Shown: piece after piece, positions 10,526 to 59,071 of the stretch
How the letters are laid out: the number at the start of each line of letters is the position of its first letter
Numbering within the stretch: position 1 is the stretch's first letter
Virus record (IMG/VR): IMGVR_UViG_3300021961_000108
Coordinates: 1-59,071 of that record
Length of the DNA: 59,071 nt
Source of the DNA: a virus
Lineage: Duplodnaviria; Caudoviricetes
Strand: one strand, 5' to 3'
Made by a program: the position numbers and the translations under genes
Notes under the pieces: model-generated
Seen by the model: only the letters and a program-made list of their open reading frames with translations
Database searches by the model: none
Told to the model about the DNA's origin: nothing

Positions 10526-12082
10526 ATGCTAATATATCCAGCTGAAATTAATGATGGTCTAGAAGAAGCTATTAAGGCTTCCGCCTCTATATCGTATGCT
10601 TCTGCTGCTCAAAGATCAGAAAAAGATTCTGATAGCTCAAAATGCTTAATAAAAACAGAAGCTGCTATAAAAGATTCAGATTTATATTATGTACAATCTA
10701 TTTTAGTAAGTTCATCATGGAATAAAAATGATGATATATTTGATAAGGCAGAAATTTGGGTTGCTAAAGATTCACCAGAAGATAAACCAACTAATCTTGA
10801 GCATGATGAAAGTGTTATTATCGGCCATATTACTTCTAACTGGCCCATTGATGATAGTGGAAATCTTTTAGATGTAAATACTCCAGCTGATAAATTACCA
10901 GAAAAATATCATATAGTTACTGGATCAGTTATTTATCGTGGATTTACTGATCCTCATCTTAGAGAAAGAGCCGAAAAATTAATATCTGAAATAGAAAATG
11001 GTACAAAATTTGTTAGTATGGAATGCTTTTTTAAAGGTTTTGATTATGGATTATTAAATACTAAAAATGGACAATATACCATATTACCACGCAATCAAAG
11101 TACTGCCCATTTAACAAAATTTTTACGAGCATATGGCGGAGTTGGAGAACACGATAACTATAAAATTGGTAGAGTATTACGTAATATTACTTTTAGCGGC
11201 AAAGGTTTTGTTGATAAACCAGCTAATCCAGATAGTATTATTTTTTCAAAAAGTTGCATTTGTGATAAAAAAAATGATTCTTTCACAGAATTAGGTGTAT
11301 TAACCAATAAGTCAACCTGTATACCGGAGACCAAAGATATGAGTTTAGAAAATACAACAGAAAATATTCAAACAGAAGAATCCCAAGCTACTACTACTGT
11401 AGAAAGTAACATTGTGGAGTCTCCTGTAGCAGAAGTAGTGACTGAAACAGAAGCCGCTATGCCACTAAAGTCAGAAGATGACATGGATAGCAAAAAAGAA
11501 GAAATCATGAAAATGCTTGAAGAAAAGGCTATGAAAATGGCCGAAGAAAAAGCTATGAAAATGATGGAAGAAAAAGCTATGAAAATGACAGAAGAAGTTG
11601 GCTTAATGAAAGCAGAATATGAGGCCAAATATAAGGCTGCTGTTGCAGAACTAGAAACTGTCAAAACAGAACTTACTCAAGCTCAAGAAGCTATTGCGGC
11701 TTACAAAAACAAAGAAGCGGAAATGATGAAAAAAGAGAAAAAGAACAAAAGAATGGCCGCTCTTGTTGAACTTGGTGTAGATAAGGAGTTAGCAAGTACA
11801 ACTGTTGATAAACTAGAACAAGTTGATGATGACACTTTTGAAACATTCAAGGGTTTATTTTCTGTAAGCACTGTTGCTAAAACAGAAGATAGCGAAGTGT
11901 CAGAATCAGTAGCTTCTGATGAAACAACAGTAACACCTGAACTTCTTGATAATATTGAAACAGAAGAATCCGTTGATTTATCCATTGGTTCAGAAAGTGT
12001 TTCTTCATTAGAAACTACTCGCTCCGAACTTCTTGAATTCGTATGTGCTAGACTAGGCAAAAAACTTAATAAGGGAGAATAA
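10526..12082 (+). CDS. Prohead protease fused to scaffold region
   Basis: NKNDDIF, NLEHD..IIGHI, VSMEC, FSGKGFVDKPANP motifs (His/Ser prohead protease pattern), followed by an acidic coiled-coil C-terminal half. Confidence 0.8.
   Translation: MLIYPAEINDGLEEAIKASASISYASAAQRSEKDSDSSKCLIKTEAAIKDSDLYYVQSILVSSSWNKNDDIFDKAEIWVAKDSPEDKPTNLEHDESVIIGHITSNWPIDDSGNLLDVNTPADKLPEKYHIVTGSVIYRGFTDPHLRERAEKLISEIENGTKFVSMECFFKGFDYGLLNTKNGQYTILPRNQSTAHLTKFLRAYGGVGEHDNYKIGRVLRNITFSGKGFVDKPANPDSIIFSKSCICDKKNDSFTELGVLTNKSTCIPETKDMSLENTTENIQTEESQATTTVESNIVESPVAEVVTETEAAMPLKSEDDMDSKKEEIMKMLEEKAMKMAEEKAMKMMEEKAMKMTEEVGLMKAEYEAKYKAAVAELETVKTELTQAQEAIAAYKNKEAEMMKKEKKNKRMAALVELGVDKELASTTVDKLEQVDDDTFETFKGLFSVSTVAKTEDSEVSESVASDETTVTPELLDNIETEESVDLSIGSESVSSLETTRSELLEFVCARLGKKLNKGE
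11339..12082 (+). CDS. Probable nested in-frame scaffolding protein, 247 aa
   Basis: Internal GGTGTAT (11294), GGAG SD (11326-11329) and in-frame ATG (Met272, MSLENTTE...) at the protease/coiled-coil boundary. Confidence 0.65.
   Translation: MSLENTTENIQTEESQATTTVESNIVESPVAEVVTETEAAMPLKSEDDMDSKKEEIMKMLEEKAMKMAEEKAMKMMEEKAMKMTEEVGLMKAEYEAKYKAAVAELETVKTELTQAQEAIAAYKNKEAEMMKKEKKNKRMAALVELGVDKELASTTVDKLEQVDDDTFETFKGLFSVSTVAKTEDSEVSESVASDETTVTPELLDNIETEESVDLSIGSESVSSLETTRSELLEFVCARLGKKLNKGE
11498..11596 (+). repeat. 24-bp tandem repeat, about 4 copies, encoding (EEKAMKMx)n
   Basis: ATGAAAATG at 11507, 11531, 11555 and 11579. Confidence 0.9.
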
Positions 12083-20428: not shown

Positions 20429-20439
20429 AAGGTTAAATT

Positions 20440-37300: not shown

Positions 37301-40300
37301 TTTATGGAACTATTAGCGGCACAGTATCATTTGACATTTATAAGACAAGTGGAACAACATACGAAGGCAATCTTATTTCTCCAGTCTTACCAACAGGAAC
37401 TACACAATGGAATGATAATTTTCCAGGATCCCATTCCGTTTATGCTACAACTTTATCATTTAATTTTCAAACAACTGGAATAAATTTATCAAATAATAAC
37501 TGGTCTGAATTATATAGTGAAAACAAAGCGCTATCTATTATTAAAAATAATAGTAGTGATTGGAATACATATGGTTTAAGTAATAGTATTAGCGGATATG
37601 TTAATTCCTATCTTGGATTGATAGAGTTTAATTTAAATACTAGTCTCCCTTTATCCGGACCAAATATTTATTTGTATACCAACCCACCATTTCCAGAAGG
37701 AGATGGACAAAATGTATATTTTAATCCGGATTACTATATTGATGATACCAATGCTACCATAAATATTTTACCATATTCTTATATACAATATCTATACGAT
37801 AATTTTTCTTATATAGATCTTAATACTATAGGATTTACTCAAAAACAATTATGTTATATTAATAATAATGATATGATCTTATTATCATATCCAACAACAT
37901 CAAAATATAGAGTAAATTCTAGTGTTACGCCATCCATAGATAATTTATATTTAGAAAAAAATGATACTATATTTATTAATGATACGTTAGATAATATTGC
38001 TAATATTTATATAGATAATAGTGGTCAAAAACATTATACTCTCACAAATTCGTATTCTGCTGGAACAGGATATGTTTATTTAGCAAGTTCAATCTCTGGT
38101 TTGGGTATTTCTTCTAGCAAATCATTCAATAATACAACTGGAACATATACATATAGTAGAAGTTCTAACTCTGATTATAGTACTATTTTACATGCAACTA
38201 CTTATGCTCCATTAACATCAGCCCCGATCATTGGATGTGTTCCTAATGAGCCCCCACACTATAGTCCAACGTGCTTGTATATTGTACCAACAGGACACGA
38301 ATTTATATTTACTCTTAATAGTGGAATTATTCCTAGTGGATCAGACTATGCCGATAATCTTGCATGGACATCATTTAATAGCAACTCTTTGATTGCTACA
38401 TCGTCTGTTATTTTACCACTTGGTCAAGATAGTATTAATTTACCACCTTTATTAATTCCAGAAGCTAGTATATATAGTAGTGGAATTAATGCTGTAAGAT
38501 GTAATGCCTCGATATTTGATTTTCGTTTAGATAATTTAAGATTGTCTAATACATACTACAATATATGGTATAGTGGATATAGTTCAGAAGCTAATACTGG
38601 TACTAATTCTATATATAATAATTTACCTGCTATTTTAGTTAGTGGAGATGTTAATCGATTCTATTTGGCAGTTACTGGAACCGGCGACTGCACTTTTGCT
38701 TATAAGGTATTAACAACTTTAGATAGTAATAATCAAAATTATATATCTAATACTTTTAGATCTCAAATTAATAATACTATCCCTACTATAGATAATATTG
38801 GAAACAAAATTATAAGGTGTTCTGACTGGGGATTATTGTCTAATCCTAATTGGTATGGTTCGGTAGATGTTAGTAATATTTCAGATTTAGATTTTAGTGT
38901 ATCATTACCACTATCATTAAACAATGATTTTATTAAAATTTTATCTACCAATACCTCTTCCACTGGTGTTTCTATTATCGGTTCTGGCACAGGATATCTA
39001 TCACCAGCCGATACTGGATTATGGACATCTTATGGTTTATCAGGGTTAAATAATATTTATGGGGATATTATATTATATCTAAAAGCTAGAGATAATTATA
39101 AGTATACTAATTTTAGTGGAATATTAAGTACTGGAATACCCAGCGATAATACAATCTATAGCAGAGGACTATTAGTTACAGAAATATATCCAGAAATTGT
39201 TTGTAATATATACTCATCAAATGGACAAAATACAGGGGTTTATTCTGTATCATTATCTAATAAGCAGGATTATCATACATTAACAGTTACTTGTCCTAGC
39301 TATCTAGATTATTTTAGAATACTATCATCCAATAAAACTCTAGATATTCATAATAATTTAAATATATCTTTTAATCTATTAGATAACAGTAATAGTGGTA
39401 TTGTATCTGGTATATTTTTACCCAATACTCAAAGAAATAAATATATAGTAAATAAACCATATAGTAAAATGTACAATGTTAGTAATGACACTTTTACTGT
39501 TGCTGTATTAAGTGGATATATGCCATCTGGTCTTCCAAATTCTGGACCAGTTATTCTTAATATTCCAAAAATATATGATCTTTTACATACTAGTCAGATT
39601 CCGTCCTATCATACAGAATCTCGTGGATCTTTTGATTTTAGATCTACCAGTAGTATTCTATCTAATGGATTATATACAATTGAAAGTTTTGATGAATATA
39701 GTATGTATTTATATGATTTTGCTAGAGTATTTGTTACCGGCTCTGACTATGGAACAGGAACTCTACAATACAATAATATTGGTTATAATATTACAGATGA
39801 TAAATTTAGTTTATGGGGTAAAAATTTTGCTGGAGACACTATTCTACATCCTTGGAGAGATGTACCAACATTTATATCCGATATTGCTGGATCGTGCGAA
39901 TCTGGTCGTTTATGTATTAGATTTTCTGGAATACCCAACTATTTTCAACTGAATGATAGTTTTTGGGTTGATGTAATACCTAATATTTATCCTCAATCTA
40001 CTAATTTAGTATATGCTAATGGATATTATGTAACAGGATTAAGTGGAGTCAATGATTCTACAATTTATATAAAGTGTCCTAGTGGAGTTCATTCTGGTAT
40101 AGTTCTTGGTATGAATACTTTTGATGCGTTTAATTATGTTCCGCTTAATTCATATATTACCACTTTTATAAGTGGAGAAGTTATTAGATTGAATAATAAT
40201 AATATTGGAGTACCACCAGTTTTCTACAATAATGTCCATGCTGGAACACTAAATAATCCATACTTATTTAGTTTTAGTAGAGAAACTATTGCTCAAAATA

Positions 40301-43300
40301 CTGAAAGTAATAATTTAAGAGAAGCTTGGAGAAATTTTATATCGGGTAGTTACACAATCTATAAAGATGAGGTTGCTCCAACAGTAGTTAGTATATTAAC
40401 CAGAATTCCACCATTTTATTATGATGCTTCTCATCAATATTATTCTGCTTGGAACACAACTCAAGCAACTAGAGGCGTTAATGTTTGGAGAAATACTGGT
40501 TCGACCGGAATATCAATGATGATTACCGGCACACAAAATATTCAAACAGACAAAAATCCTAATTATGGATATAGATTTGTTAGTACAACACCGTCATTTA
40601 GTTTTGAACCAAGTATAACAGGATACAGCTTATCAGGTAATACCATACATTCTACTCGAAGCGGTAATTTTAGATTTGCTCTTGATGATCTTAATAAGTA
40701 TTTATCTGTTAGCTCTAATAGTGGATTATATAGACCAACAGCTGGTTCTGGAAGATTAAGCTCTACTGTTGTATTTCCAGCAGCTGCTGATTGGACTATT
40801 AATAGCAGTAAAAGTGAAACCGTAAATATAATAGCTACAGATATAGATAATTTTAAATTATTAGGCGTTGATCTTATTAATCATAATAATATACAAACCT
40901 CATTAATTAGTTCTGGTAATTATAATTATATTGCTAGTGGATTAGCTCAAAATAGTGGTATTACTTTACGTTTTGGCTTGTGTGGCGGCGCAGGAGTGGC
41001 TGACCATAGACCAGAAATACAAGTATATGGATTAGAATCTAGTTATTCTTATTCTTCTAAGCACATTTATGGCATTCCTACTGGTAATCAAGGACTACTA
41101 AATTATAGTGAACAAATTAGTCCATATTCAAATATATGGTATATAGATCTATATATTAATGAGTTAAATAATATATCTTCTTTTTCATACTTATTTAAAG
41201 ACATATTATCATCAAGAGTTAGTGGAACAATATTAAATATTAGTGGATTGCCACCAAGTCCTTATATTAACAATTTTACAACTACAACATATTCTAATGG
41301 AACTAATCCATGGGTAGTATCATTTGATATTGAAAATGTTAGTAGTGGAACAAGCATAGGAATAAGCGGAGGCAGTGGAAATAATGTACTAATAATTAGT
41401 AGTGGACTAGCTTATAATACTTATTTATCTAAATGGCAAGCTTATGCTCTTGGTTCTACTCCATCAACTAATACAGTGTATAATACTGTTCCATTGGCTA
41501 TAACTGGTGCAATTACAATTCCATATACAGGAAATATTAAAGTAACTGGTACCAATGCCTCATATGCGCCACGCATTACAAATGTAGTAGATACGGTAAA
41601 ATTTAGAAATACTGGACTTGATCCGATTACATTATATTTTAATTACCAAAAAGAAGTTGGAGAGACTACAAATCCAACTATTCAATTAACAAATTATCCA
41701 ACAGGAGCAACAGTAAATTCCGTAAAGATCAACGACCCCGAACTTTCTGCACTAAATCAAGCGACAAATAAAGAATTATGGAGAATTACTATTAGCAACA
41801 TTGGAGTTACTGGCTATACATTAAATGGTATGGTTTCATTATCTCCATATACAGATAATTTTTCTACTAATATAATATCTTACGATCCATTTGTAATAGA
41901 TGCTGTTCTTGTTCCTGATCCCATAACTTTTGCTGGCCGAAATTGGCAAATTAACATATCTACTCTTGGTGGCGGAGGACCTTCTTATTTACCATATATT
42001 CAATTATTTAATGCTCCATCTATGTATGGTACTGGTACTACGGCGTACGATTACAATGTTGGTGGATGGGACATATCATTAACTGGAAACTTAGATACTT
42101 TGAATAGATATAATATGGTGACAGGACTATATAATATCAATTTATATATTCAAGATATTATTAGTTCAGTTCCAACCACAACCACTATGACATATAAATG
42201 TCCAGCAAATATTTTTGATCTTAGAAAATGGTATGCAGTAAAAGATAAATCATATCCTATAAATCTAGAAATACCTAATTGCTGTCGTTCAGAATACAAC
42301 ACTCTCTCAAACAATTTCACTATAAATCCTGATCTGCCAACTTCGGAAACATTATCATATAAAAAATATAATCCATTTACTAATACATATGAATTACGAT
42401 ATACCGGAGATCCTCCTATCGAAAAGTGGAATACAAGATTAGAGATATCTAATATAGGTAGTGAATATAGTTATGATGATCCAAACTCTAATACTTTTAC
42501 TATTGATGTCAAAGGTTTAGATACAGATGTTATTAGTGTTATTGGTTTATTAAAAATGAAAGAATTAGAGGTTATTAGTACTGATTATCCTCCATTAGAA
42601 ATTATTAATGTTAATCCTGAAGAAGATAAAACTAAAGAGTTAATACAAGGAACAGATTGGACACTTAGTTTTAGTGTTGTAGGAGGACTATCTAACCTTA
42701 ACTATCCTCCAACAATACTATTGAGTGGACTTCCGTCAGTATGTAGTGGTTATTTTCCAGATATTGATCCTGATGGTCCTCCATGCTTATCTAGTTATAG
42801 TTTTAATAATACAACCCTAAGATGGTCATTTAATTTTACTGGATCAAGTAATTGTAACACAGGATTATATAATATCAGCATAAAAGCTTTTGATTCTACT
42901 GGAGAAGATACTGCTTTTACAAATATACTATATACTCCATTGGGTATTCCTGGACCAAAAGTACAGTCAGCATTTCAAACTAATTCATTATTTCCTAACT
43001 GTTTGCCATTTTCTGGAGATATTAAGATTATTTCTCCAGAAAGAGGATTACCATGTCCATATACCACAGGTATTAAAGGATGGGAATTGATAGGATCATT
43101 ACCTAATGGATTAGCACTAGTTTCTAATAATATTGTTGGCTTACATCCTAGTTTATATACTGGCACAGGAACTATCTCCATAACCGGTACAGCAACAGCA
43201 TTTCCAGAAAATAATGTTTTCCCTCCATTTATTATAAGAGCAACAGGATTAAACGATAAGACAGCGCAAGCAACGGTAACTATGAATACCGCAGGAGTTA

Positions 43301-45294
43301 CTCCGATTGATGACAATCCATTATCTTTGACTATTTATTTCCCTTATTCTGGATATATTAGTCCAACATACAAACAAAATGTTAATGATACTCCTCATGT
43401 TAAATCAGAAAGTCAGCATGTTTATAAGCCATATCCAAGTACTGGAGCAATGATTTGTAGAAGTACTTTGTCAGAAAATAATTGTCCAACTTACTATACT
43501 GGCACATATACATTAATGACTCCAACTGGTAGCGGAGTCAATATATCTTTTGGCAGATCACCTATTAGTTCTTCAAACGTATTTGCTGTATTTGATAATA
43601 ATTTAACTAATAATAAAAATGGTATATATCAATTATTCGATATTACAAATCAAGAATTTTTTGATAATATTACACAACAATTATATTATGAATATTATGG
43701 TAAGCTATCTACATTATGCAATCCAGCACCAACTTTATTCTCCGGCTTAACTCCAGAATCGGGCTTTATTAAGCTTATGCCATTTGAAGTAACATCTATG
43801 AATGTCCCAGCCAGTCTGGATCTCGGAGGATTACCAAAAGGAACTATAGGATGTAATACATGTCTTCTTGGAAATGGAGAATTACAACAAAATGAGGGAG
43901 CAACACTTAAATTAATTGGTAAAATGAGACCATCAATGGCTTTTAGTATTACAGGTAATTCTTACCCCCTACAAAATTATGATAGTAATAATTCGTGTTC
44001 TGCTGGTGGATTTGGTTTTAGTATTCCCAATCTTACTTTGGTAAGTGGTGTTGAAACACAATTGTTACCAGGTTTTCCTTCTGGAGAACAAGAAGAAATT
44101 TGCTTTACTAATTGTTATGAAACTGGAGTTGCATATATTAGTGGTGTCGTTGTACCAACACCCATTTTAGAAATTACAGATGCTCCAGTTCCTCCCTACA
44201 TTTATAACGGTCAGTCAAATTCATTTGCATTAAGGTGCTCTTTTGGAGATACCACTGTTAAGAGAAATAGAAAAGAAAACTATAGAGAATTAGAAATCAA
44301 ATATTATATTAAACATTTAAATAGCGGATTATATTGGGATAATACAAACTCATTATTCACAGCAACAAAAACATTTATAAGCAAAAATACAACAGCAGAT
44401 CCTGCTAGTCCACAATCAATAGGATATACGGCTCCAATTATCAGCAGTGGTGCAATATATGAATTATTTATGGAAAGAAAAGCTGATGATTTTCCGACTG
44501 TAAATATTAACTCGTATCCATATATTAGTAATTCTATTTATTGGATTCATAGGGCTAATGATGATTCCACCCCAGCTGTATCTAGCACATATCCTGGATT
44601 CATGCCAATAAATTATGGCAGTGGATTAATTATACAAACAGGAGTTCCGTTCTATATTGCTGCACAAATTCTTGGTGGTAGTGGTTCATATCAACCTTCT
44701 ATATCTGGCTATCTAACATTAGCAAATCAGACAGGTGAAGTATTAGATATTAATGGCTTATCACATAATTTAGCAACAAGTATTAGTGGTTCTAATATAA
44801 CAGATGGCTTATGGAATATTCAAATTACTGGAAATATTACTGGACTATTTAATTCGTATCTTGTTGATTATGATCTTAGAATGGGTATTACAGAAAATAT
44901 ATTGGCCCCATTCCCCAAATCAACCACGAACATTATTCCTGTTACACTGGTTAAGCCGTTAGAACTAACTATTACTAGTGCTGGTGGCACAACATTGTCT
45001 GTAAATATTGGTACACAATGGGTGCTTTCGTTTAATATATCTGGAGGAAATAGACCACCAAGATATCATACTAATACTAGCCAGTGGGCTATTGATAATG
45101 AGCCGATTATAGAAATTAATGGAGATATTTGTAACTATACTATACAAAATAAAATATATAATGTCAATAATAATACTTGGTCATTTACATTGAGATCCAC
45201 AGCAATTATAAATAGCAATACTGTGTTAAACCTAGTTTATATTGATAAATTACAATACTCTATATCTGAAACAATAAACGTTCAAGTGGTATAA
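34375..45294 (+). CDS. Giant virion fibre/adhesin protein, 3639 aa
   Basis: Short collagen repeat (GPKGDKGDIGPVGPAGQNG), GTYTKV.V..KGR and LDADLLDG fibre motifs, head-like NSLAxG repeats, C-terminal Ig/cadherin-like repeats. Confidence 0.8.
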   Translation: MTIINILEDSNNPTKYLIVTSQDGTSETLVTTNVLVTTSSNNRAELIEITKIPGPKGDKGDIGPVGPAGQNGVVFDILPINSGGTNNSSFITDKVIYYDGTKLSSSDLDINSIQTNIISNIYSGTGLSKVQSGDTVTLNANLGDGLTIVGENQIGIDTNIVITKSTLDLSDTSFYQGILPINYGGTNNTFFGLNSLVYYDGSKLATYPIPTGQIVHSGQKISVVAGSGLVGGGDITLPNGSVVIKLQNSDDIIVFDDHIELSNIISSGTYTKVYVNNKGRVIGGTNLTLSDIIAAVGGTPWTSANDGDGSGLDADLLDGQQSSYYRDASNITGVLSTNLLPDIVTAGTASKVQFNAKGLIVDSGVLQYLDITDALGYVPFDKGGGQILNDVEILGNITAESGFFTDNSITLGQPYNTNDIRGIRFRYNDVPAKYAVLAYYPAENIFRISSESPGTSGVVLTLERADSKYVAVTGEQQISGIKTFLNSIQLYARLIVRNPTPELPPFDIGSNDKLVQFLNSDLLDDQHGWYYRNAINLTGTLNSDVIIPHIQSRATVSYSNINSPDDGYLEYFPIFHRPSSGHPMVLRSSYVYQTGYNIHMDDASLSIGQNTLDDNITNSLVIGTSNSGSALAQNSLAVGYENTISGTNSLALNYRSSAGKNNSIALGKYGETWVDDQISIGGFKNFNVGQDGIARKDSHGQLSYIPLKYHGEAAGYVNILTFTLPENKTLEYEAELLFTKQKNTGVASFQITPGIVKNYGYRDPARGYAAYKKATMATHHTIKEIYNNSQERTYGLSVNLVTDHDDISRTNNLEVTAAPYQYQSLDIQSYANPVVIYPKSDFSTKLKATRDSSDLGSTYRKNFVVKLEPYDRSPFNTGAPITLGRNINHITECLYYRPSGSKNGIIKFPNHGLSNQCPFDSSIYIGTGNIKLLARTDQIFDFGMPKVRNTGLYTKSFFRENTTGNLIYRTYIDKNIYGTISGTVSFDIYKTSGTTYEGNLISPVLPTGTTQWNDNFPGSHSVYATTLSFNFQTTGINLSNNNWSELYSENKALSIIKNNSSDWNTYGLSNSISGYVNSYLGLIEFNLNTSLPLSGPNIYLYTNPPFPEGDGQNVYFNPDYYIDDTNATINILPYSYIQYLYDNFSYIDLNTIGFTQKQLCYINNNDMILLSYPTTSKYRVNSSVTPSIDNLYLEKNDTIFINDTLDNIANIYIDNSGQKHYTLTNSYSAGTGYVYLASSISGLGISSSKSFNNTTGTYTYSRSSNSDYSTILHATTYAPLTSAPIIGCVPNEPPHYSPTCLYIVPTGHEFIFTLNSGIIPSGSDYADNLAWTSFNSNSLIATSSVILPLGQDSINLPPLLIPEASIYSSGINAVRCNASIFDFRLDNLRLSNTYYNIWYSGYSSEANTGTNSIYNNLPAILVSGDVNRFYLAVTGTGDCTFAYKVLTTLDSNNQNYISNTFRSQINNTIPTIDNIGNKIIRCSDWGLLSNPNWYGSVDVSNISDLDFSVSLPLSLNNDFIKILSTNTSSTGVSIIGSGTGYLSPADTGLWTSYGLSGLNNIYGDIILYLKARDNYKYTNFSGILSTGIPSDNTIYSRGLLVTEIYPEIVCNIYSSNGQNTGVYSVSLSNKQDYHTLTVTCPSYLDYFRILSSNKTLDIHNNLNISFNLLDNSNSGIVSGIFLPNTQRNKYIVNKPYSKMYNVSNDTFTVAVLSGYMPSGLPNSGPVILNIPKIYDLLHTSQIPSYHTESRGSFDFRSTSSILSNGLYTIESFDEYSMYLYDFARVFVTGSDYGTGTLQYNNIGYNITDDKFSLWGKNFAGDTILHPWRDVPTFISDIAGSCESGRLCIRFSGIPNYFQLNDSFWVDVIPNIYPQSTNLVYANGYYVTGLSGVNDSTIYIKCPSGVHSGIVLGMNTFDAFNYVPLNSYITTFISGEVIRLNNNNIGVPPVFYNNVHAGTLNNPYLFSFSRETIAQNTESNNLREAWRNFISGSYTIYKDEVAPTVVSILTRIPPFYYDASHQYYSAWNTTQATRGVNVWRNTGSTGISMMITGTQNIQTDKNPNYGYRFVSTTPSFSFEPSITGYSLSGNTIHSTRSGNFRFALDDLNKYLSVSSNSGLYRPTAGSGRLSSTVVFPAAADWTINSSKSETVNIIATDIDNFKLLGVDLINHNNIQTSLISSGNYNYIASGLAQNSGITLRFGLCGGAGVADHRPEIQVYGLESSYSYSSKHIYGIPTGNQGLLNYSEQISPYSNIWYIDLYINELNNISSFSYLFKDILSSRVSGTILNISGLPPSPYINNFTTTTYSNGTNPWVVSFDIENVSSGTSIGISGGSGNNVLIISSGLAYNTYLSKWQAYALGSTPSTNTVYNTVPLAITGAITIPYTGNIKVTGTNASYAPRITNVVDTVKFRNTGLDPITLYFNYQKEVGETTNPTIQLTNYPTGATVNSVKINDPELSALNQATNKELWRITISNIGVTGYTLNGMVSLSPYTDNFSTNIISYDPFVIDAVLVPDPITFAGRNWQINISTLGGGGPSYLPYIQLFNAPSMYGTGTTAYDYNVGGWDISLTGNLDTLNRYNMVTGLYNINLYIQDIISSVPTTTTMTYKCPANIFDLRKWYAVKDKSYPINLEIPNCCRSEYNTLSNNFTINPDLPTSETLSYKKYNPFTNTYELRYTGDPPIEKWNTRLEISNIGSEYSYDDPNSNTFTIDVKGLDTDVISVIGLLKMKELEVISTDYPPLEIINVNPEEDKTKELIQGTDWTLSFSVVGGLSNLNYPPTILLSGLPSVCSGYFPDIDPDGPPCLSSYSFNNTTLRWSFNFTGSSNCNTGLYNISIKAFDSTGEDTAFTNILYTPLGIPGPKVQSAFQTNSLFPNCLPFSGDIKIISPERGLPCPYTTGIKGWELIGSLPNGLALVSNNIVGLHPSLYTGTGTISITGTATAFPENNVFPPFIIRATGLNDKTAQATVTMNTAGVTPIDDNPLSLTIYFPYSGYISPTYKQNVNDTPHVKSESQHVYKPYPSTGAMICRSTLSENNCPTYYTGTYTLMTPTGSGVNISFGRSPISSSNVFAVFDNNLTNNKNGIYQLFDITNQEFFDNITQQLYYEYYGKLSTLCNPAPTLFSGLTPESGFIKLMPFEVTSMNVPASLDLGGLPKGTIGCNTCLLGNGELQQNEGATLKLIGKMRPSMAFSITGNSYPLQNYDSNNSCSAGGFGFSIPNLTLVSGVETQLLPGFPSGEQEEICFTNCYETGVAYISGVVVPTPILEITDAPVPPYIYNGQSNSFALRCSFGDTTVKRNRKENYRELEIKYYIKHLNSGLYWDNTNSLFTATKTFISKNTTADPASPQSIGYTAPIISSGAIYELFMERKADDFPTVNINSYPYISNSIYWIHRANDDSTPAVSSTYPGFMPINYGSGLIIQTGVPFYIAAQILGGSGSYQPSISGYLTLANQTGEVLDINGLSHNLATSISGSNITDGLWNIQITGNITGLFNSYLVDYDLRMGITENILAPFPKSTTNIIPVTLVKPLELTITSAGGTTLSVNIGTQWVLSFNISGGNRPPRYHTNTSQWAIDNEPIIEINGDICNYTIQNKIYNVNNNTWSFTLRSTAIINSNTVLNLVYIDKLQYSISETINVQVV

Positions 45295-52940: not shown

Positions 52941-55900
52941 ATGGCAGCATTCAATCTTACTGCACAACTTAATTTGGTTGGACCAACAAATGTTAGACAA
53001 ATTGTTGGAGATATTAGAAAACAATTAGGCACAATAAAGGGTAATATTGATCTTGGTATTGATCCTAAAGCTATAAGAGCTATTGCTCAATTACAAAGTC
53101 AAGCATCTCAAATAAGTTCATCTTTAAATAATGTTTCTAGATCAGCATCAGTAGCTAGTGGCTCTATTAACGACCTTAATAATGCTGCTAGTAAAAATCA
53201 ACTAGGATCAGTTGCTCAATCAGCAGCTAAAGCAGCAAGTGCTGCTAGTGATTTGGGTAAAGAAAGTTCACGATCATCAAAAGATGTTAAAGTTTTAAGT
53301 AACGAATTGGCTGAGTTCGGTAGACAAAGTGGTTTGGCTATTCGTCGTTTTGCCGCGTTTAGTTTAGTATCAGGCGTAATGTATAAGTTGAATAGTGCTA
53401 TTAATCAAGCATTATCACAATATATAGACTTTGATAGAGAATTAGTTAGAGTATCACAAGTTACTGGTAAAAGTGTTGCCGAGTTAGGGAGTTTAGTTAA
53501 TGAAATTAGTTCGTTAGCAACTAGTACCGGTGTTGCTTCAAAAGAATTAATTCAAGTATCAAGTACATTAGCACAGGCTGGTTTAAGTGCTAGAGATGCT
53601 GAGAAAGCATTAAAAGCATTGGCTCTGAGTGCTAATGCTCCATCATTTGATAATTTAAATGATACTGTGGAAGGCAGTATCGCACTCATGAGACAGTTTG
53701 GTATTAGTGCGGATGATCTAGAAAGTGCATTAGGTAGTGTTAATGCTGTGGCAGCTGCATTTGCTGTTGAAGCCAGCGACTTAATTGCTGCTATTCAACG
53801 TACTGGTGGTGTGTTTGCAAGTGCTAGTAGAGGAGTTAGTGAAGGTACTGACGCATTAAATGAATTTATAGCTGTATTTACAAGTGTTCGTGCTACAACT
53901 CGTGAAAGCGCTGAAACTATTGCTACTGGCTTAAGAACAATTTTTACCAGAATTCAGAGAGAATCTACTATTACTGCTCTTAGAGAGTTGGGTGTTGAAT
54001 TGCGCGATGTTGAAGGAAAATTCGTTGGGCCTTATGAGGCTGTTAGAAGACTTAGCGAAGGATTAGGACAATTAGATCCAAGATCTCAAACATTTGCTTC
54101 TATTGTTGAAGAACTTGGTGGTTTCCGACAAATTGGTAAAGTTATTCCTCTTATTCAACAATTTGCTACAGCGGAAGCAGCACTACAAGTTGCTATGAAA
54201 GGTGGAGATTCACTAGCAGAGGCTAATAGACAAGCTCAACAAGCATTAGCCGTACAATTAGCAAAAACTAGAGAAGAATTTGTTGCATTAGTTAGAGATT
54301 TTGCTAATAATACTGCTTTTAGAAGCTTTCTAACAACAACTATTGGTATAACCAAAAGTATACTAAGTTTAGCACGAGCAGGACGATCATTATTTCCACT
54401 ATTAACACTAATGGGAGGATTTAAAGCATTTTCTGCTGTGACTCAGTTTGCTGGCGGCTTTGCTCAAGGAGTAAGACCGTCTGGAGGCAGAGGAGGCGGC
54501 GGAGACGAAGAAGGCATAGATAATAAGGCTCTATCTAGAACTATGGGAAGAAGTGTATCTCGTAGTATTGGTAAGGGTTTGGGAGAAATGTTGAGTGGTT
54601 CAAAAACTGAAAGACAAGCAGAATCATTAGAGCAAATCGTTAGTATATTAAGAAGTAATGCACAAGCTTTTAATACTGATGTTAGTAGTTTATCTCAACC
54701 AATAACATCATTGTCTTCTTTATTAAATGATAATAATTCATTGTTATCTGCTAATACTAGCGGATTAAATAATGTATATGCTGCTTTAGTTAATTTAGAA
54801 GCAGCTATTAGTAGCAAAAGTTTTACTGGTCCAACCACTGCTAGAGGTGGTGGAAGAATACTGGGTTTCTCGAAAGGTGGAACTGTTCCTGGTAGTGGCA
54901 AAGGAGATAAAGTTCCGGCATTATTAGAACCCGGCGAAGTTGTAATGAGCAATAACGCTGTTAATAGATATGGAAGAGGTAATTTGGTAAGAATGAATAA
55001 GTATGCTACAGGTGGCAAGATACAAAAACGACTTAGTGATTTAGATCTTAATTTAAGCAAAGAAGTTTCTGGTATAGATTTAGCACAAACAGATATTAAA
55101 CTTAAAGAAATACAATTATTTCCAAATGATTTTGCTGAAATGCAAAAAACAATTATGGAAACCAAAAAAGAAACAACAAAAATTATAGAAAAATACCCAG
55201 GAAAAGAAACCGAACAATTTACTAAAAAATATAGAGGTGGTCAATGGTTGCTAGGAAAAGCCTTTCAGGAAATTGTTGAAAAAAAATATAATCTTAAAGG
55301 AGTAAGGCCATCTGGATTTGGAACATCCACAGAAAACTTTGATGATATCTTACAGGAACATTTTGCTCCATTGGATTATACAACAGGAGATGCAAAATTT
55401 GTTAAAAATCTAAATAGTATAACAAATGAAGAAATATTAAGTAAAAGATTGAGATATGAGTTTAAAGAGAATAAATTACGTCCAGATCCAAGTACAAAAA
55501 TAGAATCGTTTAATTTACCTGATACATCATTATACTATCCAGCAAAAGGCATTAAAGAAAGATTTGAAAGATATATTCAATCAACAGGAGAGTCTTCTAA
55601 AATTTTAGGAGGATATTTTAATCTTGGTGGATTAGTTCAAAGATTTATGGCCGGAGGAGAAGCTGAAGAAACAACACCTTGGGGAGATACGGCTACTGTA
55701 CCAGAAATTCTAAGACTTTTAACCTTTGATGGAGCTGCTAAGATCGGTAGAGTAGCAAATCCTAGAGAACTACTTAAAAGGAAAAAACCAACAGAAGATG
55801 AAAAAGCTAAGATAAAAGCTATCAGAGATGAAGCAACAAAAACATATAATAGAAGAATAGGAGCGGCCAAAGGAGTACAAACTAGATTAACTGGACAAGG

Positions 55901-58900
55901 ACTAAAATTTGCTGCGGTAGGAATGTTTGGAGATACTTTTCCAGACGAAACATATGATGCTGAAGGAACTAAAGGAACAAGAAAAGTATTGATCACAGCA
56001 GCATTGATGGACAGAGCATTAGCAGAACAACTAGATGCTGATTTTGGAGGTGGTATAGAATCAACAGCCCAACAAGCTGCTGAAAAAGTTATGGTTGGTA
56101 ATATTACTAAAGGGTTATTAGGAGGTAAACAAGCAGAATTTGATTTTGATAGAACATTAGCAGTTGGTGCTGATGATATAGCTAGCTTGAAAGATTTTAG
56201 AGATCCTGCTATTGTTCAAGAAAAATTAAAAAATGCAAGTTTAACAAGATTAGGTAGAGCACTAGTAGATTTAGTTAAAGCTCATCCAGAAATACTTCCT
56301 AATATGAGGATAGTAACAGCACGATCTCAGTCCACAGTACCACTAGTCCAAAGATGGCTAGCAGACAAAGGACTAGGATTGTCTGATTCTCAATTTGTGG
56401 GAGTTGGCGGCGATTCTCAAATAGTTTCCGAAAGCGATATTCCGGCATTAAAAGCTGCTCAATTAAGAGCAGGATCATTATTTGTTGATGATAGCGGCCC
56501 GAATATTAGAGCTGCTGAAGCTAGTGGTAAAAACATAGAAACATATCAGTATGGGGCGCAATTAACTACCCCTAATCCTGTTTTAGAGTCTAGTGTTAAG
56601 GGTATATTTTTTGAAAAAATGATACAAAATCTTGGAGGCCCCGGAGCAATTGCCGGACTAGGATTTGATTATCCCAAAGGTTTAGGACCTGCTGCTAAAT
56701 ATTTTGGTATTGATCCTGATATTCCTACTGATGCTAAAAGAACCATAGTTGGCGCAGGAACTATTAAAGATAATGTTAGAACTTATCTTAAAGCAATGGG
56801 ATATGCTGGTGGTGGAATGATTATGGGCAAAGGAAGAGGAAAGAAAGGGGCAAAGGGAGCCAGAGATGTTATAGAGCCTATTAGTAGTGAAACATATTTA
56901 AAATGGGCTCAGGGCATATATGATGAATATGATAAAGATCCTTCGTTAGTAATGACTACTGATGAACTCGGAATAAGAATGCCCCCAGAAATAGCATTAG
57001 CTAATAAACTATTAACACAACATGCGTTACAAACTGGAGGAGCAGGATTAAGCGTTGGGACAAGATTTGTTACAACACCGGAACAATATATAGACGACGC
57101 ATTAAGACCTTATCTTGTGCCAAATCCTAATAATCCTAATGAATTAGGTTTTTATGAAGATGTTATTGCTAAGTTTGGTAGGGCTAAAGCAGTATCAGCG
57201 GCAGCAACAAAAAAACTTGGTAAAGCAGAAGCATTGAAAGCTGTTGAAGCTAGAATGGAAACGTACACTGGTGCCGAAAATGCAATTACTGAATTTAAAA
57301 AGAGTGGAGTTCTAAATGTTAGTTCATCAATAATGGACTATATAATTAAATCAGTAAATAATCCTGATAATTTACCATTAGATAGTAAAGGTATCAATAG
57401 CATAAAGAAAAAATTAACAAAAAGTAATGTTGATGCTTTTAATGCTTTAGTTGGATCCCAAAAAACTCCTGTTAGTGTACAGGGCCAAAGAACAAAATTA
57501 GGAGAAGTTTTTAATGCTATATTAGAAACTTATGGTAGTGATGTATCTGATTTAGAAGTTGATAATATAACTAGAGCTATGGGAGAAAAATTAAATATTG
57601 GTGGACTAGTACAAAAGTTTGCTTTTGGTGGAAAAGCAGATGGTCCAGGATTTGAAGAAGTTCGAAAACAAATAATGGATAAATATCCAGAGGTTGATTT
57701 TAGAATTAGTAAGCGCAAAAAAGGAAGAGGTTTTGGATATAATTTATTAGGAGCTTTAAAAACAGATGGTGGATTATTAGGATCGAAAGGACTACAATTT
57801 GAACAGCCAAGTAATCTACAAAAACTAATTGAAGTTTCTGATAAAATGGCAACAAGCTTGATAAATCCACAAGAACTAGCGGTTGGTGGATTAGCAGATG
57901 CTACATCAGAAATGGCAAGTTTGATGGGTGGTCTTTATGGTAATAGAAAATCATCAGAAGCAGTCCCGGCTAAAAAACAAAAAGATTTTGGTAGAATAGG
58001 ATTAAATGAAGATGGTAATTTGATTAGTGCTGGTTATTACAAGAATGATCAAAGATCAGGATACGTTCAAGCTTATAAGATGAAAGATAATTTATATTAT
58101 GTAGGATTATCTAAAGCTACTAGTGGTTATGGCCCAAGATTATACGATGTGGTAATGGAAGCTGTTAGTGAAAAAGGGGCTATGTTAACTTCTGATAGAG
58201 GTATGGTTAGCGCAGAAGCTCAAAAGGTATGGCAATATTATTTTAAGAATAGAGGAGATGTTAAGAAAACGCCGTTGGAACCAGAGAACTGGACAAAAAA
58301 TCAATCATTAATTGATCCTAAACTTTATGGACGCAAAGAAACTTGGCCTCCATCAACTGATCCTGCTTGGGTATTACAAAGTGGATATAGTAAAAGTCCA
58401 AGTTTAATTAATGATCCTAATGCAGTTGTTAGAGGAAATAAAAAATCAACAGTATCTTCTGGACAAATGGCTCTGCAGTATTTCCAAAGAGCAAATGGCG
58501 GCAGACTAGGTTTTGCTACTGGTGGAAGTGTTGATGAGAATATAAAAAAGATTTCGGCAATGAGAATGAGGGAGATCGATATTGGAATGAATCTTAGAAG
58601 ACAACTTCCAGCAATGTCTCAAGAAGAATGGCAAAAAGAATGGGAAAAAATAAGATCAGCTCCTGGAGGCTCTCGACAATTAGCAGAGGAATTATTTGGT
58701 TCAGAAGAGGCGGCGAATAGAATCATTACTGAACAAGCTTATGCCAGAGTAAAAAACCCTCATAAGAACGGTGGTTTAATTAACAGATTCGTTGATGGCG
58801 GAACTGTCCCAGCATTAGTTAGTAATGGGGAAGCTTATGTTCCGCCCAAACTAGCTAAAAAGATCGGTTACGGAACTCTTAGCAAGATGAATCAGGCTGA

Positions 58901-59071
58901 TAAGAATGGTATGGGGCGATTTAGTAGTGGTGGAATTAGCGTATTTAAAGGACCCGGTAGCGGGACTAGCGATAGCATACCAACAAGTTTACCAGTTGGT
59001 AGTTTTATACTGAGAGAAAAGGCTACTAAAGCATTAGGCTTAAATAAAGGAGGAATGGTACAAAGATTTGC
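52941..59071 (+). CDS. Tape measure protein (TP901-like core) with multiple cargo domains; 3' truncated, >2040 aa
   Basis: Missing from ORF track (no stop in window). Manual translation MAAFNLTAQLNLVGP...; core FDRELVRVSQVTG, LAQAGL, RESAETIATGLRTIFTRI, GGFRQ; GGTVPGSGKGDKVPALLEPGEVV motif; frame stays open to 59071. Confidence 0.9.
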   Translation, partial: MAAFNLTAQLNLVGPTNVRQIVGDIRKQLGTIKGNIDLGIDPKAIRAIAQLQSQASQISSSLNNVSRSASVASGSINDLNNAASKNQLGSVAQSAAKAASAASDLGKESSRSSKDVKVLSNELAEFGRQSGLAIRRFAAFSLVSGVMYKLNSAINQALSQYIDFDRELVRVSQVTGKSVAELGSLVNEISSLATSTGVASKELIQVSSTLAQAGLSARDAEKALKALALSANAPSFDNLNDTVEGSIALMRQFGISADDLESALGSVNAVAAAFAVEASDLIAAIQRTGGVFASASRGVSEGTDALNEFIAVFTSVRATTRESAETIATGLRTIFTRIQRESTITALRELGVELRDVEGKFVGPYEAVRRLSEGLGQLDPRSQTFASIVEELGGFRQIGKVIPLIQQFATAEAALQVAMKGGDSLAEANRQAQQALAVQLAKTREEFVALVRDFANNTAFRSFLTTTIGITKSILSLARAGRSLFPLLTLMGGFKAFSAVTQFAGGFAQGVRPSGGRGGGGDEEGIDNKALSRTMGRSVSRSIGKGLGEMLSGSKTERQAESLEQIVSILRSNAQAFNTDVSSLSQPITSLSSLLNDNNSLLSANTSGLNNVYAALVNLEAAISSKSFTGPTTARGGGRILGFSKGGTVPGSGKGDKVPALLEPGEVVMSNNAVNRYGRGNLVRMNKYATGGKIQKRLSDLDLNLSKEVSGIDLAQTDIKLKEIQLFPNDFAEMQKTIMETKKETTKIIEKYPGKETEQFTKKYRGGQWLLGKAFQEIVEKKYNLKGVRPSGFGTSTENFDDILQEHFAPLDYTTGDAKFVKNLNSITNEEILSKRLRYEFKENKLRPDPSTKIESFNLPDTSLYYPAKGIKERFERYIQSTGESSKILGGYFNLGGLVQRFMAGGEAEETTPWGDTATVPEILRLLTFDGAAKIGRVANPRELLKRKKPTEDEKAKIKAIRDEATKTYNRRIGAAKGVQTRLTGQGLKFAAVGMFGDTFPDETYDAEGTKGTRKVLITAALMDRALAEQLDADFGGGIESTAQQAAEKVMVGNITKGLLGGKQAEFDFDRTLAVGADDIASLKDFRDPAIVQEKLKNASLTRLGRALVDLVKAHPEILPNMRIVTARSQSTVPLVQRWLADKGLGLSDSQFVGVGGDSQIVSESDIPALKAAQLRAGSLFVDDSGPNIRAAEASGKNIETYQYGAQLTTPNPVLESSVKGIFFEKMIQNLGGPGAIAGLGFDYPKGLGPAAKYFGIDPDIPTDAKRTIVGAGTIKDNVRTYLKAMGYAGGGMIMGKGRGKKGAKGARDVIEPISSETYLKWAQGIYDEYDKDPSLVMTTDELGIRMPPEIALANKLLTQHALQTGGAGLSVGTRFVTTPEQYIDDALRPYLVPNPNNPNELGFYEDVIAKFGRAKAVSAAATKKLGKAEALKAVEARMETYTGAENAITEFKKSGVLNVSSSIMDYIIKSVNNPDNLPLDSKGINSIKKKLTKSNVDAFNALVGSQKTPVSVQGQRTKLGEVFNAILETYGSDVSDLEVDNITRAMGEKLNIGGLVQKFAFGGKADGPGFEEVRKQIMDKYPEVDFRISKRKKGRGFGYNLLGALKTDGGLLGSKGLQFEQPSNLQKLIEVSDKMATSLINPQELAVGGLADATSEMASLMGGLYGNRKSSEAVPAKKQKDFGRIGLNEDGNLISAGYYKNDQRSGYVQAYKMKDNLYYVGLSKATSGYGPRLYDVVMEAVSEKGAMLTSDRGMVSAEAQKVWQYYFKNRGDVKKTPLEPENWTKNQSLIDPKLYGRKETWPPSTDPAWVLQSGYSKSPSLINDPNAVVRGNKKSTVSSGQMALQYFQRANGGRLGFATGGSVDENIKKISAMRMREIDIGMNLRRQLPAMSQEEWQKEWEKIRSAPGGSRQLAEELFGSEEAANRIITEQAYARVKNPHKNGGLINRFVDGGTVPALVSNGEAYVPPKLAKKIGYGTLSKMNQADKNGMGRFSSGGISVFKGPGSGTSDSIPTSLPVGSFILREKATKALGLNKGGMVQRF

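Follow-up and report, generated by a model that had tools for sequence, protein, structure and literature searches.

Large virion-linked polypeptides combining many unrelated domains have been described as the polyvalent proteins of phages and conjugative elements (Iyer, Burroughs, Anand, de Souza, and Aravind, 2017; PMC5512222). As presented in that account, their architectures are combinatorial, their entry into the host along with the DNA is predicted, their repertoire includes GNAT and ADP-ribosyltransferase domains, and zincin-like peptidases are proposed to process them and release their units (PMC5512222). The module array described here can be likened to them in its combinatorial architectures, and would resemble them in its predicted entry into the host and in its candidate enzymatic domains. 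Among phages, the polyvalent proteins described are associated with the head (MuF, portal, N4 virion RNA polymerase, and P1 Dar), and the main text of that paper, supplements aside, does not contain the words "tape measure," "TMP," "linker," or "glycine" (PMC5512222), whereas here a tape measure protein (TMP) is the carrier, and the modules are flanked by joint and anchor motifs that are dedicated and conserved. In addition, almost none of these modules match known domains. The combinatorial, fast-changing architectures are present, with 352 segment families in 121 proteins and swaps at the strain level, whereas the zincin-like peptidase is not constant: HExxH modules occur in 52 of 160 long relatives, and no HExxH was found in the 2043 aa visible here or in the closest full-length relative (P0153). 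Among known systems, we judge the polyvalent proteins to come closest to the array.

TMPs with an embedded or terminal enzymatic domain provide further precedents, the motifs of mycobacteriophage TMPs being one case in addition to T5 pb2 and lambda gpH. In these cases, the TMP serves as the vehicle of a catalytic domain acting at infection, as is proposed here. T5 pb2 is cut after R1127, which frees the enzymatic domain from the ruler, and lambda gpH is reported to be likewise processed (PMC10038345). Such TMPs have no more than two domains and a single cut, which follows an arginine, whereas six to eight modules per protein, hundreds of module families, and Gly-Gly (GG) joints are found here. 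The site consensus of the adenovirus and African swine fever virus proteases is (M/L/I)xGG|x. In these clan CE systems, the structural polyproteins of large DNA viruses are cut at hydrophobic-x-Gly-Gly. The pp220 and pp62 polyproteins of African swine fever virus are processed by pS273R (PMC8450572). No such protease was found in the three partial records searched here, and the present joint is longer, repeated, and conserved on both sides. Lastly, Sle1 of the actinobacterial contractile injection systems belongs to a set of TMP-related effectors described as a "reconfigurable" platform, in which a TMP-derived scaffold with exchangeable functional domains is ejected from a tail-like machine (PMC13277306). 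The functional domains vary between species in that description, which mentions no long module array (PMC13277306); the machine is bacterial and not a phage, and the likeness drawn here is one of description.

The tape measure gene and its relatives

The DNA analyzed (the window) is a 59071-base viral contig rated 39% complete. The reading frame at 52941..59069 (+ strand, like all the features given below) remains open throughout 2043 codons under the standard bacterial code, all three stops counted, and runs off the end of the contig, the window holding less than half of the gene. It matched TIGR01760 with 92.5 bits (cut-off 28.8) over the TP901-type core (53394..54254, aa 152–438) and the Pfam family PhageMin_Tail (PF10145) with an E-value of 2.7e-24 and 86.6 bits (cut-off 33.2) over aa 188–393; PHROG TMP families also match it. 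Its nearest full-length relatives measure 4291 and 4706 aa. On these profile matches, it is identified as the N-terminal 2043 aa of a giant TP901-type TMP from an uncultured large phage. The segments beyond the core, which a preliminary description had called globular-looking, are richer in tyrosine (3.4%) and tryptophan (0.8%) and poorer in alanine (8.6%) than the core (0.6, 0, and 13.6%, respectively), which supports that view. The full-length relatives P0002 and P0153 have the long, Ala-rich helical stretches and the hydrophobic, glycine-rich segments near the C-end that mark TMPs of this type, with 15.3% alanine and hydrophobic windows at aa 3627–4111 and 3837–3859.

The unusual length of the frame, and the fact that a metagenome contig ends inside it, might suggest that the assembly is chimeric, or that an error or an unusual genetic code has fused several genes into a single reading. 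This seems extremely improbable: no stop of the standard bacterial code interrupts the frame, the same continuous architecture occurs in hundreds of independently assembled relatives, and the array is not an assembly chimera, since a single contig of 4305 nt from an independent run (X2) spans 54080–58384 with two differences.

The search for relatives gave 861 representative matches at E ≤ 1e-3, the best 150 of which are mostly 2000–7872 aa long, and 361 proteins of 3577–5000 aa at E ≤ 1e-10, on contigs of up to 232 kb. More than 100 giant relatives (2000–7872 aa) follow one plan, which consists of a core, an anchor motif, a variable module array, an anchor motif, and a long tail, and the sets and orders of the modules differ under this shared plan. 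In the window, the first anchor is an M0 unit reading GFSKGG-TVPGSGKGDKVPALLEPGEVV...MNKYATGG (54831..55034, aa 631–698), which is bounded by the joints FSKGG and YATGG, scores 84.9 bits with the M0 profile, and matches PHROG TMP families. The second anchor (58764..59066) consists of two M0-like units recognized by the M0 profile (aa 1942–1990 and 1987–2042), and is 85–88% identical to those of relatives, although the array between the anchors differs. The array had been described as bracketed by copies of the motif GGxVPGxGxxDxVPAxLxxGE; the profile does find this motif at both ends, but the second bracket is composed of two variant units, with no clean copy. That the motif is common in TMP tails is borne out by the many PHROG TMP families which match near their C-ends. 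M0-like units occur along the whole length of the relatives, often some 700–1200 aa apart and again near the C-end. The M0 profile gave no match with T5 pb2.

Glycine joints and the limits of the modules

The 14 GG sites of the preliminary description are all located where it had placed them (54867, 55002, 55617/55644, 56802, 57591/57618, 57876, 58488/58512, 58761/58788, 58920, and 59040), and the lengths between the joints are 200, 381, 258, 81, 199, and 78 aa, as claimed. About 26 GG positions are present in aa 631–2043, and the choice of 14 was selective, since the remaining ones (at aa 766, 1036, 1061, 1156, 1232, 1366, 1610, 1663, and 1909, for example) fall inside modules; the family comparison later bore out this choice. 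The form [FY]xxGG occurs nine times in aa 631–2043, as against 1.26 ± 1.08 expected (none of 2000 shuffles reached nine), and 10 times in the 15688 aa of the window's other reading frames. The paired form GGx3-6[FYL]xxGG gave six regular-expression matches at five sites, two of which overlap at the triple G of aa 636–638, as against 0.13 expected, and none in the window's other frames. The GG joints are non-random. Their consensus is GG-x-[VI]-Q-[KR]-[FYL]-A-x-G-G-x-V, in one to three units of nine residues, and the joint (n = 1546) has Gly-Gly at P2-P1, preceded by Ala at P4 and a hydrophobic residue at P5, with V at P2' and Q-K upstream, i.e., conservation on both sides and a period of nine residues. 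The M0 unit, a feature of single-copy TMPs as well, starts with this joint. It belongs to the TMP context: free proteins with tandem copies of module 5 have no joints, and the joints therefore serve something specific to the TMP.

In the alignments of the family, 30.8% of the distinct HSP ends lay within 8 aa of a joint, as against 8.6% at random positions. Cutting the proteins at the joints gave 2804 match pairs out of 19103 (14.7%) with a mutual coverage of at least 80%, as against 215–281 of about 32500 pairs with three sets of random cuts, which makes end-to-end homologous units some 17 times commoner with joint cuts. The 804 segments from 121 proteins fall into 352 families, 268 of which are singletons, and the commonest family has 34 distinct neighbors upstream and 24 downstream. 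When a joint was counted if it lay within 20 aa of the projected start or end of a domain, it was present at 42 starts and 46 ends of the 59 copies of module 5 (random: 9/59), at both ends of all 13 copies of module 4 (random: 4/13), and at 35 starts and 64 ends of the 68 copies of module 2 (random: 12/68); several limits, such as 33 of the 68 module 2 starts, have no joint within this distance. These comparisons of sequences show that the borders of homology units coincide with joints in over 100 relatives, and that module content and order are combinatorial.

The closest relative, P0153, differs from the window protein at four places, three of which are at joints: other sequence replaces module 1, beginning right after YA[TK]GG, a 17-aa joint extension is present at YAGGG, and module 6 is absent between FA|TGG and FV|DGG. 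The fourth difference, an internal deletion of the core of module 5 (aa 1664–1820), ignores the joints. Similar events were observed in the DNA of a freshwater strain (run X5) which is approximately 97–98% identical to the window. In a contig of 42653 nt, position 58516 is followed directly by 58793, so that 276 nt (92 codons; window 58517–58792) are missing in frame, and the loss of module 6 runs exactly from FA|TGG to FV|DGG. In a second contig (3349 nt), about 1117 nt of different sequence stand where the window has 619 nt at module 1; the breakpoints lie at 55006, inside YATGG, and at 55626, inside FNLGG. Near-identical strains differ by in-frame, joint-to-joint loss or replacement of modules. 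The family-wide tests, P0153, and the two X5 events thus uphold the claim of a modular array bounded by GG joints at which modules are gained, lost, or replaced; the relatives are not invariant and collinear, nor do the boundaries lie off the linkers. The joints had also been called recombination joints: the events do end at joints, but homologous recombination at the linkers is not indicated, since DNA copies of the joint are only 73–80% alike and the junction of the module 6 deletion shares about one base.

The modules and their candidate functions

The searches of Pfam, PHROG, and NCBIfam gave no family match for any module of the window protein. Module 1 (55017..55616, aa 693–892), which belongs to no known family and is replaced by other sequence in close relatives, is followed by the paired joint FNLGGLVQRFMAGG (FNLGG/FMAGG, 55617..55658), a member of DNA repeat family D1, and by module 2 (55659..56801, aa 907–1287). 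Beyond the joint YAGGG (56802..56816) lies module 3 (56817..57590, aa 1293–1550), and beyond the paired joint LNIGGLVQKFAFGG (LNIGG/FAFGG, 57591..57632) lies module 4 (57633..57875, aa 1565–1645); neither belongs to a known family, and module 4 has joints at both ends in all 13 copies of the relatives. The joint LAVGG (57876..57890) precedes module 5 (57891..58487, aa 1651–1849). Between the paired joints RANGGRLGFATGG (RANGG/FATGG, 58488..58526) and HKNGGLINRFVDGG (HKNGG/FVDGG, 58761..58802), module 6 (58527..58760, aa 1863–1940) has no relative among the proteins compared.

HAD enzymes carry the motifs DxDx[TV], S/T, K, and DD in this order. All four are present in order in module 2, which shows DFDRT at aa 1068–1072 (56142–56156) and DD at aa 1183–1184 (56487–56492). 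In the module 2 alignment (A3, 11 sequences), residues D19, D21, T23, A78, R79, K122, D134, and D135 are invariant and T77, which forms a T-A-R motif, is conserved in at least 90% of the sequences; DxDx[TV] is present in 72 of 88 matches. Six of the seven weak matches listed in the PDB profile search are HAD proteins, at non-significant E-values (0.35–1.6), and no Pfam family at all was matched at E ≤ 5, i.e., there is no significant profile match. The C-terminal half of module 2 is a candidate HAD-like phosphatase.

Module 5 is probably GNAT-like, which is to be taken as a lead. Its homologues also exist as free-standing phage proteins of 115–450 aa, and the GNAT assignment comes from a search for look-alikes, by language model and by structure, with one of them (P0137, 29% identical), whose features reach 0.94–0.95 to N-acetyltransferase clusters of the Atlas and whose structure gave TM values of 0.61–0.63 to Atlas clusters in which 15–31% of the members carry PF00583. 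No GNAT family was found in Pfam with 20 members of module 5, nor in the PDB profile search at E ≤ 10. The ADP-ribosyltransferase family PF03496 was detected in 1 of 20 and in 2 of 120 listed relatives.

A proposed tethered cargo, and possible cleavage or other roles

We think it rather probable that the protein is a giant TMP with a hypervariable array of independently folding accessory modules, which are separated by joints and constitute a tethered, swappable cargo. The array would follow the TMP core and precede a C-terminal half which, in the full-length relatives, is long and helical and bears glycine zippers, and it would be flanked by conserved M0 anchor units of about 65 aa. The joint would act as a standard interface at which a module can be swapped without breaking frame or fold. 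While the tail is assembled, the modules would stay tethered like beads on a string, with cleavage, if any, occurring late or in the host, and they would ride with the TMP into the host at DNA ejection, as in polyvalent proteins. The candidate cargoes would include the HAD-like phosphatase and the probable GNAT-like domain, with ADP-ribosyltransferase and HExxH modules in relatives. The place of the array in a TMP suggests that it may be packaged in the virion and injected; together with the enzyme-like modules, it suggests that the modules may be effectors delivered with the DNA.

Cleavage of the joints, at whatever stage, is rather less likely than not. A true giant polyprotein cut at the joints into free effectors, at tail maturation or after ejection, is a somewhat less likely case. 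The hydrophobic P5, the Ala at P4, and the Gly-Gly at P2-P1 resemble (M/L/I)xGG|x protease sites. In favor of cleavage, T5 pb2 and lambda gpH are cut (PMC10038345), African swine fever virus polyproteins are cut by pS273R (PMC8450572), and peptidase processing has already been proposed for polyvalent proteins (PMC5512222); three recurrent HExxH module families occur in the relatives, and the joints are absent from the free tandem module 5 proteins. Peptidase_C5 (PF00770), C48 (PF02902), C39, S78, and S77 were found in none of the three records, each 39–59% complete, the S77 control also matching nowhere, and the absence of clan CE, C39, and prohead protease families from these partial genomes argues against cleavage. 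The frame 10526..11338, which had been proposed to encode the prohead protease, matched no Pfam or PHROG family and no protease. With no candidate protease family in these genomes and HExxH modules that are inconstant and absent from both the visible part of the window protein and P0153, the earlier reading of the joints as protease sites was not supported. The conservation on both sides and the nine-residue period look structural, unlike a bare scissile site, the joint doubles as the front edge of M0 in single-copy TMPs, and individual joints decay, FMAGG having become FMAGS in P0153. Self-cleavage by acyl shift is unlikely, since GG is not followed by S, T, or C, and a ruler already cut into eight pieces when assembly begins could measure nothing.

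Should the modules be delivered cargo, they would constitute a large, almost wholly unannotated store of early-acting phage effectors, given the number of joint-delimited families present in only 121 proteins, attached to a virion part with which polyvalent proteins had not been linked before. With the conserved joint as a guide, such giants can readily be divided into candidate domains whose structures can be predicted and activities assayed, and the strain-level swaps show that the array is evolving now in natural waters. How a ruler of 4000–8000 aa can be assembled and ejected with so many globular domains strung along it is a mechanical question. A bolder possibility, which we regard as unlikely, is that the joints and M0 form a dedicated cassette socket in the TMPs of widespread large aquatic phages, into which hundreds of effector modules are swapped, to be delivered by the tail and released at the joints by a protease; this would be the phage counterpart, at the protein-domain level, of polymorphic-toxin or integron-like cassette arrays.

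The modules might instead be structural or envelope-penetrating parts of the tail (lumen fillers, a periplasm-spanning conduit, or wall-degrading domains), with the joints and M0 as docking or register elements holding the three TMP chains or binding the tube or chaperones. The recurrence of M0-like units along whole relatives (481 instances in 118 of 121), the glycine-flanked nine-residue repeat of the joint, the lack of an enzyme signature in most modules, and the wall-degrading domains carried by known TMPs such as that of T5 (PMC10038345) are consistent with this. We nevertheless consider it improbable: with hundreds of segment families, most of them singletons, the content is extremely variable, near-identical strains gain or lose modules, which would be unexpected for essential structural parts, and module 5 is a free small protein in other phages. 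Domains of the HAD-like, GNAT-like, and ADP-ribosyltransferase kinds suggest targets in the cytoplasm, and no lysozyme or peptidoglycan-hydrolase family was detected in the domain searches. As regards the surroundings of the gene, no tail sheath family was found in the three partial records, and the ten reading frames upstream of the TMP gene gave no informative Pfam or PHROG match. In record L005, the gene following the TMP encodes a long fibre-like repeat protein.

The tape measure gene and its module array

The gene encoding the tape measure protein (TMP) is the last gene of the window (52941..59069, + strand), a contig of 59071 bases with a completeness rating of 39%; its first 2043 codons are open and it continues past the contig end. 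The protein core matches the Pfam family PhageMin_Tail (aa 188-393, E 2.7e-24), and the N-terminal part also matches NCBIfam TIGR01760 (92.5 bits versus a cut-off of 28.8) and several PHROG TMP families; judging from these profiles, the N-terminal part of the ORF is that of a tape measure protein. The nearest full-length relatives, P0002 (from locus L005) and P0153, consist of 4706 and 4291 aa, respectively, and less than half of the gene is therefore inside the window.

Between the core and a second anchor, six modules (aa 693-1940) are separated by joints, short GG sites of the [FY]xxGG type. All the 14 GG sites (14/14) on which the preliminary description based its polyprotein-like array were found in place, and the module lengths between them agree with those reported; these sites are a selection from about 26 GG positions in this stretch. 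The [FY]xxGG motif occurs 9 times in aa 631-2043, versus 1.26 ± 1.08 expected (2000 shuffles, none of which reached 9), and 10 times in the other ORFs of the window, which total 15688 aa. The paired form of the joint matched the regex 6 times, at 5 sites (two of the matches overlap), versus 0.13 expected, and not once in the other ORFs. The profile of the bracketing motif M0, a conserved anchor unit of about 65 aa, detected three units, at aa 631-698, 1942-1990, and 1987-2042. The composition of the array is globular (Y 3.4%, W 0.8%, A 8.6%); that of the core is Ala-rich, with hardly any aromatic residues. A contig from an independent run spans 54080-58384 with two differences from the window, and the array is therefore not a chimera.

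Another giant ORF (34375-45294, + strand; 3639 aa), located upstream in the same late-gene block, carries only two [FY]xxGG motifs and no paired joints. Two large ORFs of 1291 and 1016 aa in 16553-23490 (+ strand) match tail fibre PHROG families, one of which also matches, over a short N-terminal stretch, a family annotated as hyaluronidase; both ORFs lie far upstream of the TMP gene, and such a gene order is unusual. Positions 1-2000, at the left end of the contig, have a G+C content of 0.43, versus 0.29-0.41 in the remaining 2-kb windows, and a negative GC skew; this end may differ in kind from the rest.

Joints as limits of modules in a family of giant proteins

With aa 906-1945 as the query, a HMMER scan yielded 861 matches at E<=1e-3, and the best 150 of these 861 mostly measure 2000-7872 aa. 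A word-based search at E<=1e-10 found 361 proteins with lengths of 3577-5000 aa, on contigs of up to 232 kb; those named by their source are called "TP901 family phage tail tape measure protein," "hypothetical protein," and "ABC-type transporter Mla subunit MlaD." When the modules of the window were mapped onto the relatives, a common plan emerged: a core followed by M0, then about 600-2400 aa of variable sequence, a double M0-like unit, and a long tail. Within the variable part, differing subsets and orders of the window's modules are interspersed with unrelated sequence, for example 3-2-4-5 in P0004, 2-3-5 in P0019, and some unknown sequence followed by module 2 and then module 4 in P0003. 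The identity between the window and P0002 is 67% over aa 1-908, 27% in module 2 and 88% in the second anchor, and modules 3-6 have no counterpart in P0002.

The relatives are all uncultured, and no cultured one was found in the GenBank phage collection: the core has no close relative there and matches only SPbeta-like TMPs (22% identity), and modules 2 and 5 have no match at all. A word-based scan of viral contigs with modules 3-6 also failed to detect any relative. The M0 motif alone matches a cyanomyovirus protein (52-58% identity; Synechococcus phage S-SM2 and a relative, matches H9-H11) annotated as "putative bacteriophage-related transmembrane protein." The scan of species-representative genomes yielded seven M0-only matches and one full-length relative (L007), a result that points to no host. 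The contig with L007 (141 kb) belongs to a MAG whose only label is "bacterium," and it may be a phage sequence that was binned as bacterial. The Pfam search on 11 whole giants returned only PhageMin_Tail, plus chance-level matches to EF-hand and Aminopep, and the PDB sequence search gave no matches for P0002 or P0001.

The consensus of 1546 joints is GG-x-[VI]-Q-[KR]-[F39% L20% Y18%]-[A35%]-x-G-G-x-[V34%], i.e., a nine-residue unit which is present in one to three tandem copies and with which the M0 unit also begins. Such M0 units occur along the whole length of the relatives, including the vicinity of the C-end (481 units in 118 of the 121 proteins), and M0 matches many ordinary TMP families close to their C-ends. 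In P0005, P0015, P0025, P0013, and P0106, M0-like units are spaced 700-1200 aa apart in the C-terminal half and reappear near the C-end, as if the giants consisted of several TMP-like sections that each end in the M0 motif. The joint is missing from free proteins in which module 5 is present two or three times, and it therefore belongs to the TMP setting.

The relationship between joints and modules was analyzed using the hydrophobic-xx-GG sites of 121 giants and all-against-all BLAST comparisons. Among the distinct alignment ends, 30.8% lie within 8 aa of a joint versus 8.6% at random positions, with a sharp peak exactly at the GG. When the proteins were cut at the joints, 2804 of the 19103 matching pairs (14.7%) covered at least 80% of both segments; with three sets of random cuts, 215-281 of about 32500 pairs (0.7-0.9%) did so. 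The 804 segments cluster into 352 families, 29 of which have at least five members and 268 of which are singletons, and the commonest family has 34 different neighbours upstream and 24 downstream. Domain limits were also defined by profiles, a joint being counted when no more than 20 aa away from a projected start or end. In the case of module 5, a joint was present at the start in 42/59 sequences and at the end in 46/59 (9/59 at random); the corresponding values were 13/13 and 13/13 for module 4 (4/13 at random), 35/68 and 64/68 for module 2 (12/68), and 6/6 and 4/6 for module 3 (1/6). At the junctions inspected, modules 4 and 5 are flanked on both sides by [FY]AxGG regardless of the neighbour. 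On the basis of these four tests, the joints mark module units, though not without exception.

Recent changes at the joints

The closest protein, P0153, shows 90% identity to the window in the core and differs from it at four points in the array. Two other modules replace module 1, from right after YA[T/K]GG up to the FNLGG...FMAGG joint; the YAGGG joint is extended by 17 aa; module 6 is missing precisely between FA↓TGG and FV↓DGG; and the core of module 5 (aa 1664-1820) has been lost by an internal deletion which does not respect the joints.

Public contigs aligned to the TMP gene provided evidence at the DNA level. In the freshwater run X5, the contigs of which are about 97-98% identical to the window, a contig of 42653 nt joins 58516 to 58793, skipping 276 nt (92 codons) in frame and giving GFADGG. 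Another X5 contig, of 3349 nt, matches 53789-55006 and 55626-56639, and about 1117 nt of other sequence replaces the 619 nt of the window, with one breakpoint falling within the YATGG codons and the other within those of FNLGG. The X5 strain retains an intact module 5. Contigs of runs X2 and X5 reach past the end of the window. These events indicate that modules are gained and lost at joints within a living population. A further joining observed in run X4 (56725->57031) was set aside, one of its sides being only 22 letters long, and stretches lacking coverage in X4 and X12 were not counted as evidence. The modular reading proposed in the preliminary description is supported both by the match between joints and units and by these recent gains and losses.

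The DNA copies of the joint are the strongest direct repeats of the region, yet they are only 73-80% alike, and about one base is shared at the module 6 junction; homologous recombination at the joints is not indicated on these grounds. The pattern may instead be due to selection favouring events that keep the frame and the fold. Runs bearing the labels estuary, aquaculture, and marine yielded contigs at least 99% alike, and a freshwater run yielded contigs 95-99% alike (X2, X4, X5, and X12, 4 of the 21 listed runs); the phage or very close strains seem to occur across salinities.

Predicted cargo, possible cleavage at the joints, and candidate module identities

The window carries a TMP with a joint-punctuated, fast-changing array of modules. 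TMPs exit the tail and pass into the cell envelope before the DNA, and for this reason the array is predicted to be cargo. The joints probably provide a standard interface, with which swaps stay in frame and domains fold separately. The string of modules would be expected to remain intact through assembly, because a cut ruler could not measure. The preliminary description also proposed that the joints are protease sites, which we consider rather doubtful. The shape of the site is consistent with cleavage, domains with different targets would need to be freed, and the cutting of a TMP has a precedent in T5, after R1127 (PMC10038345). However, profiles of protease families (PF04586, PF00770, PF02902, and PF03412) found no match in three partial genomes (0/3), and the ORF previously called a prohead protease matches no family; the control, PF03420, was likewise without a match (0/3), so that its search is uninformative. 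In addition, HExxH modules are present in just 52/160 long relatives and absent from the closest one, the GG is conserved on both sides with a nine-residue period, and single joints decay. The slight resemblance of the T5 pb2 cleavage site (FVPR↓AEGG...) to a joint plus M0 was given no weight, the M0 profile having no match in T5 pb2.

The array resembles the polyvalent proteins, for which Iyer and colleagues predicted injection together with the phage DNA; in that paper the phage versions are tied to head proteins, and TMPs are absent from its main text (PMC5512222). As a concept, multi-domain injected phage proteins are already known, and so are TMPs with one enzymatic domain. A joint-delimited module array in a TMP was not found in the literature searched, though the supplements of PMC5512222 might list such architectures; relative to that literature, the TMP as a carrier and the dedicated grammar of joint and anchor appear to be new, as does the scale, with hundreds of giants and hundreds of module families, almost all unannotated.

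Searches of Pfam, PHROG, and NCBIfam with each module of the window gave nothing usable, and modules 1, 3, 4, and 6 are without a family. In the C-terminal half of module 2, DxDxT, T-A-R, K, and DD are invariant in an 11-sequence alignment (DxDx[TV] in 72/88 matches), which corresponds to the four-motif signature of HAD phosphatases. The PDB profile search was not significant (E 0.35-1.6), and 6/7 of its matches are HAD proteins, AphA aligning across all the motifs. Module 5, which also occurs as free viral proteins of 115-450 aa, shows invariant R, S, A, W, and R residues and a GxGPxLYD motif, and its profile has no match in PDB. In the ESM Atlas, a free homologue adjoins N-acetyltransferase clusters (feature scores 0.94-0.95), its structure giving a TM of 0.61-0.63 to clusters in which 15-31% of the members carry PF00583; the signal was weaker in a further comparison. 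These similarities provide a lead, not a proof, that module 5 is N-acetyltransferase-like.

Three recurrent HExxH modules are present in the relatives, and an ADP-ribosyltransferase exoenzyme domain was detected in 1 of 20 relatives in one set and in 2 of 120 among the matches listed. Another recurrent module, without any Pfam match, starts with LYHGS/T...GQGAGFYV right after a joint in P0002 (aa ~1900-1960), P0052, P0075, and P0085; this presumably recalls the H-Y-E motif class of PARP-like ADP-ribosyltransferases.
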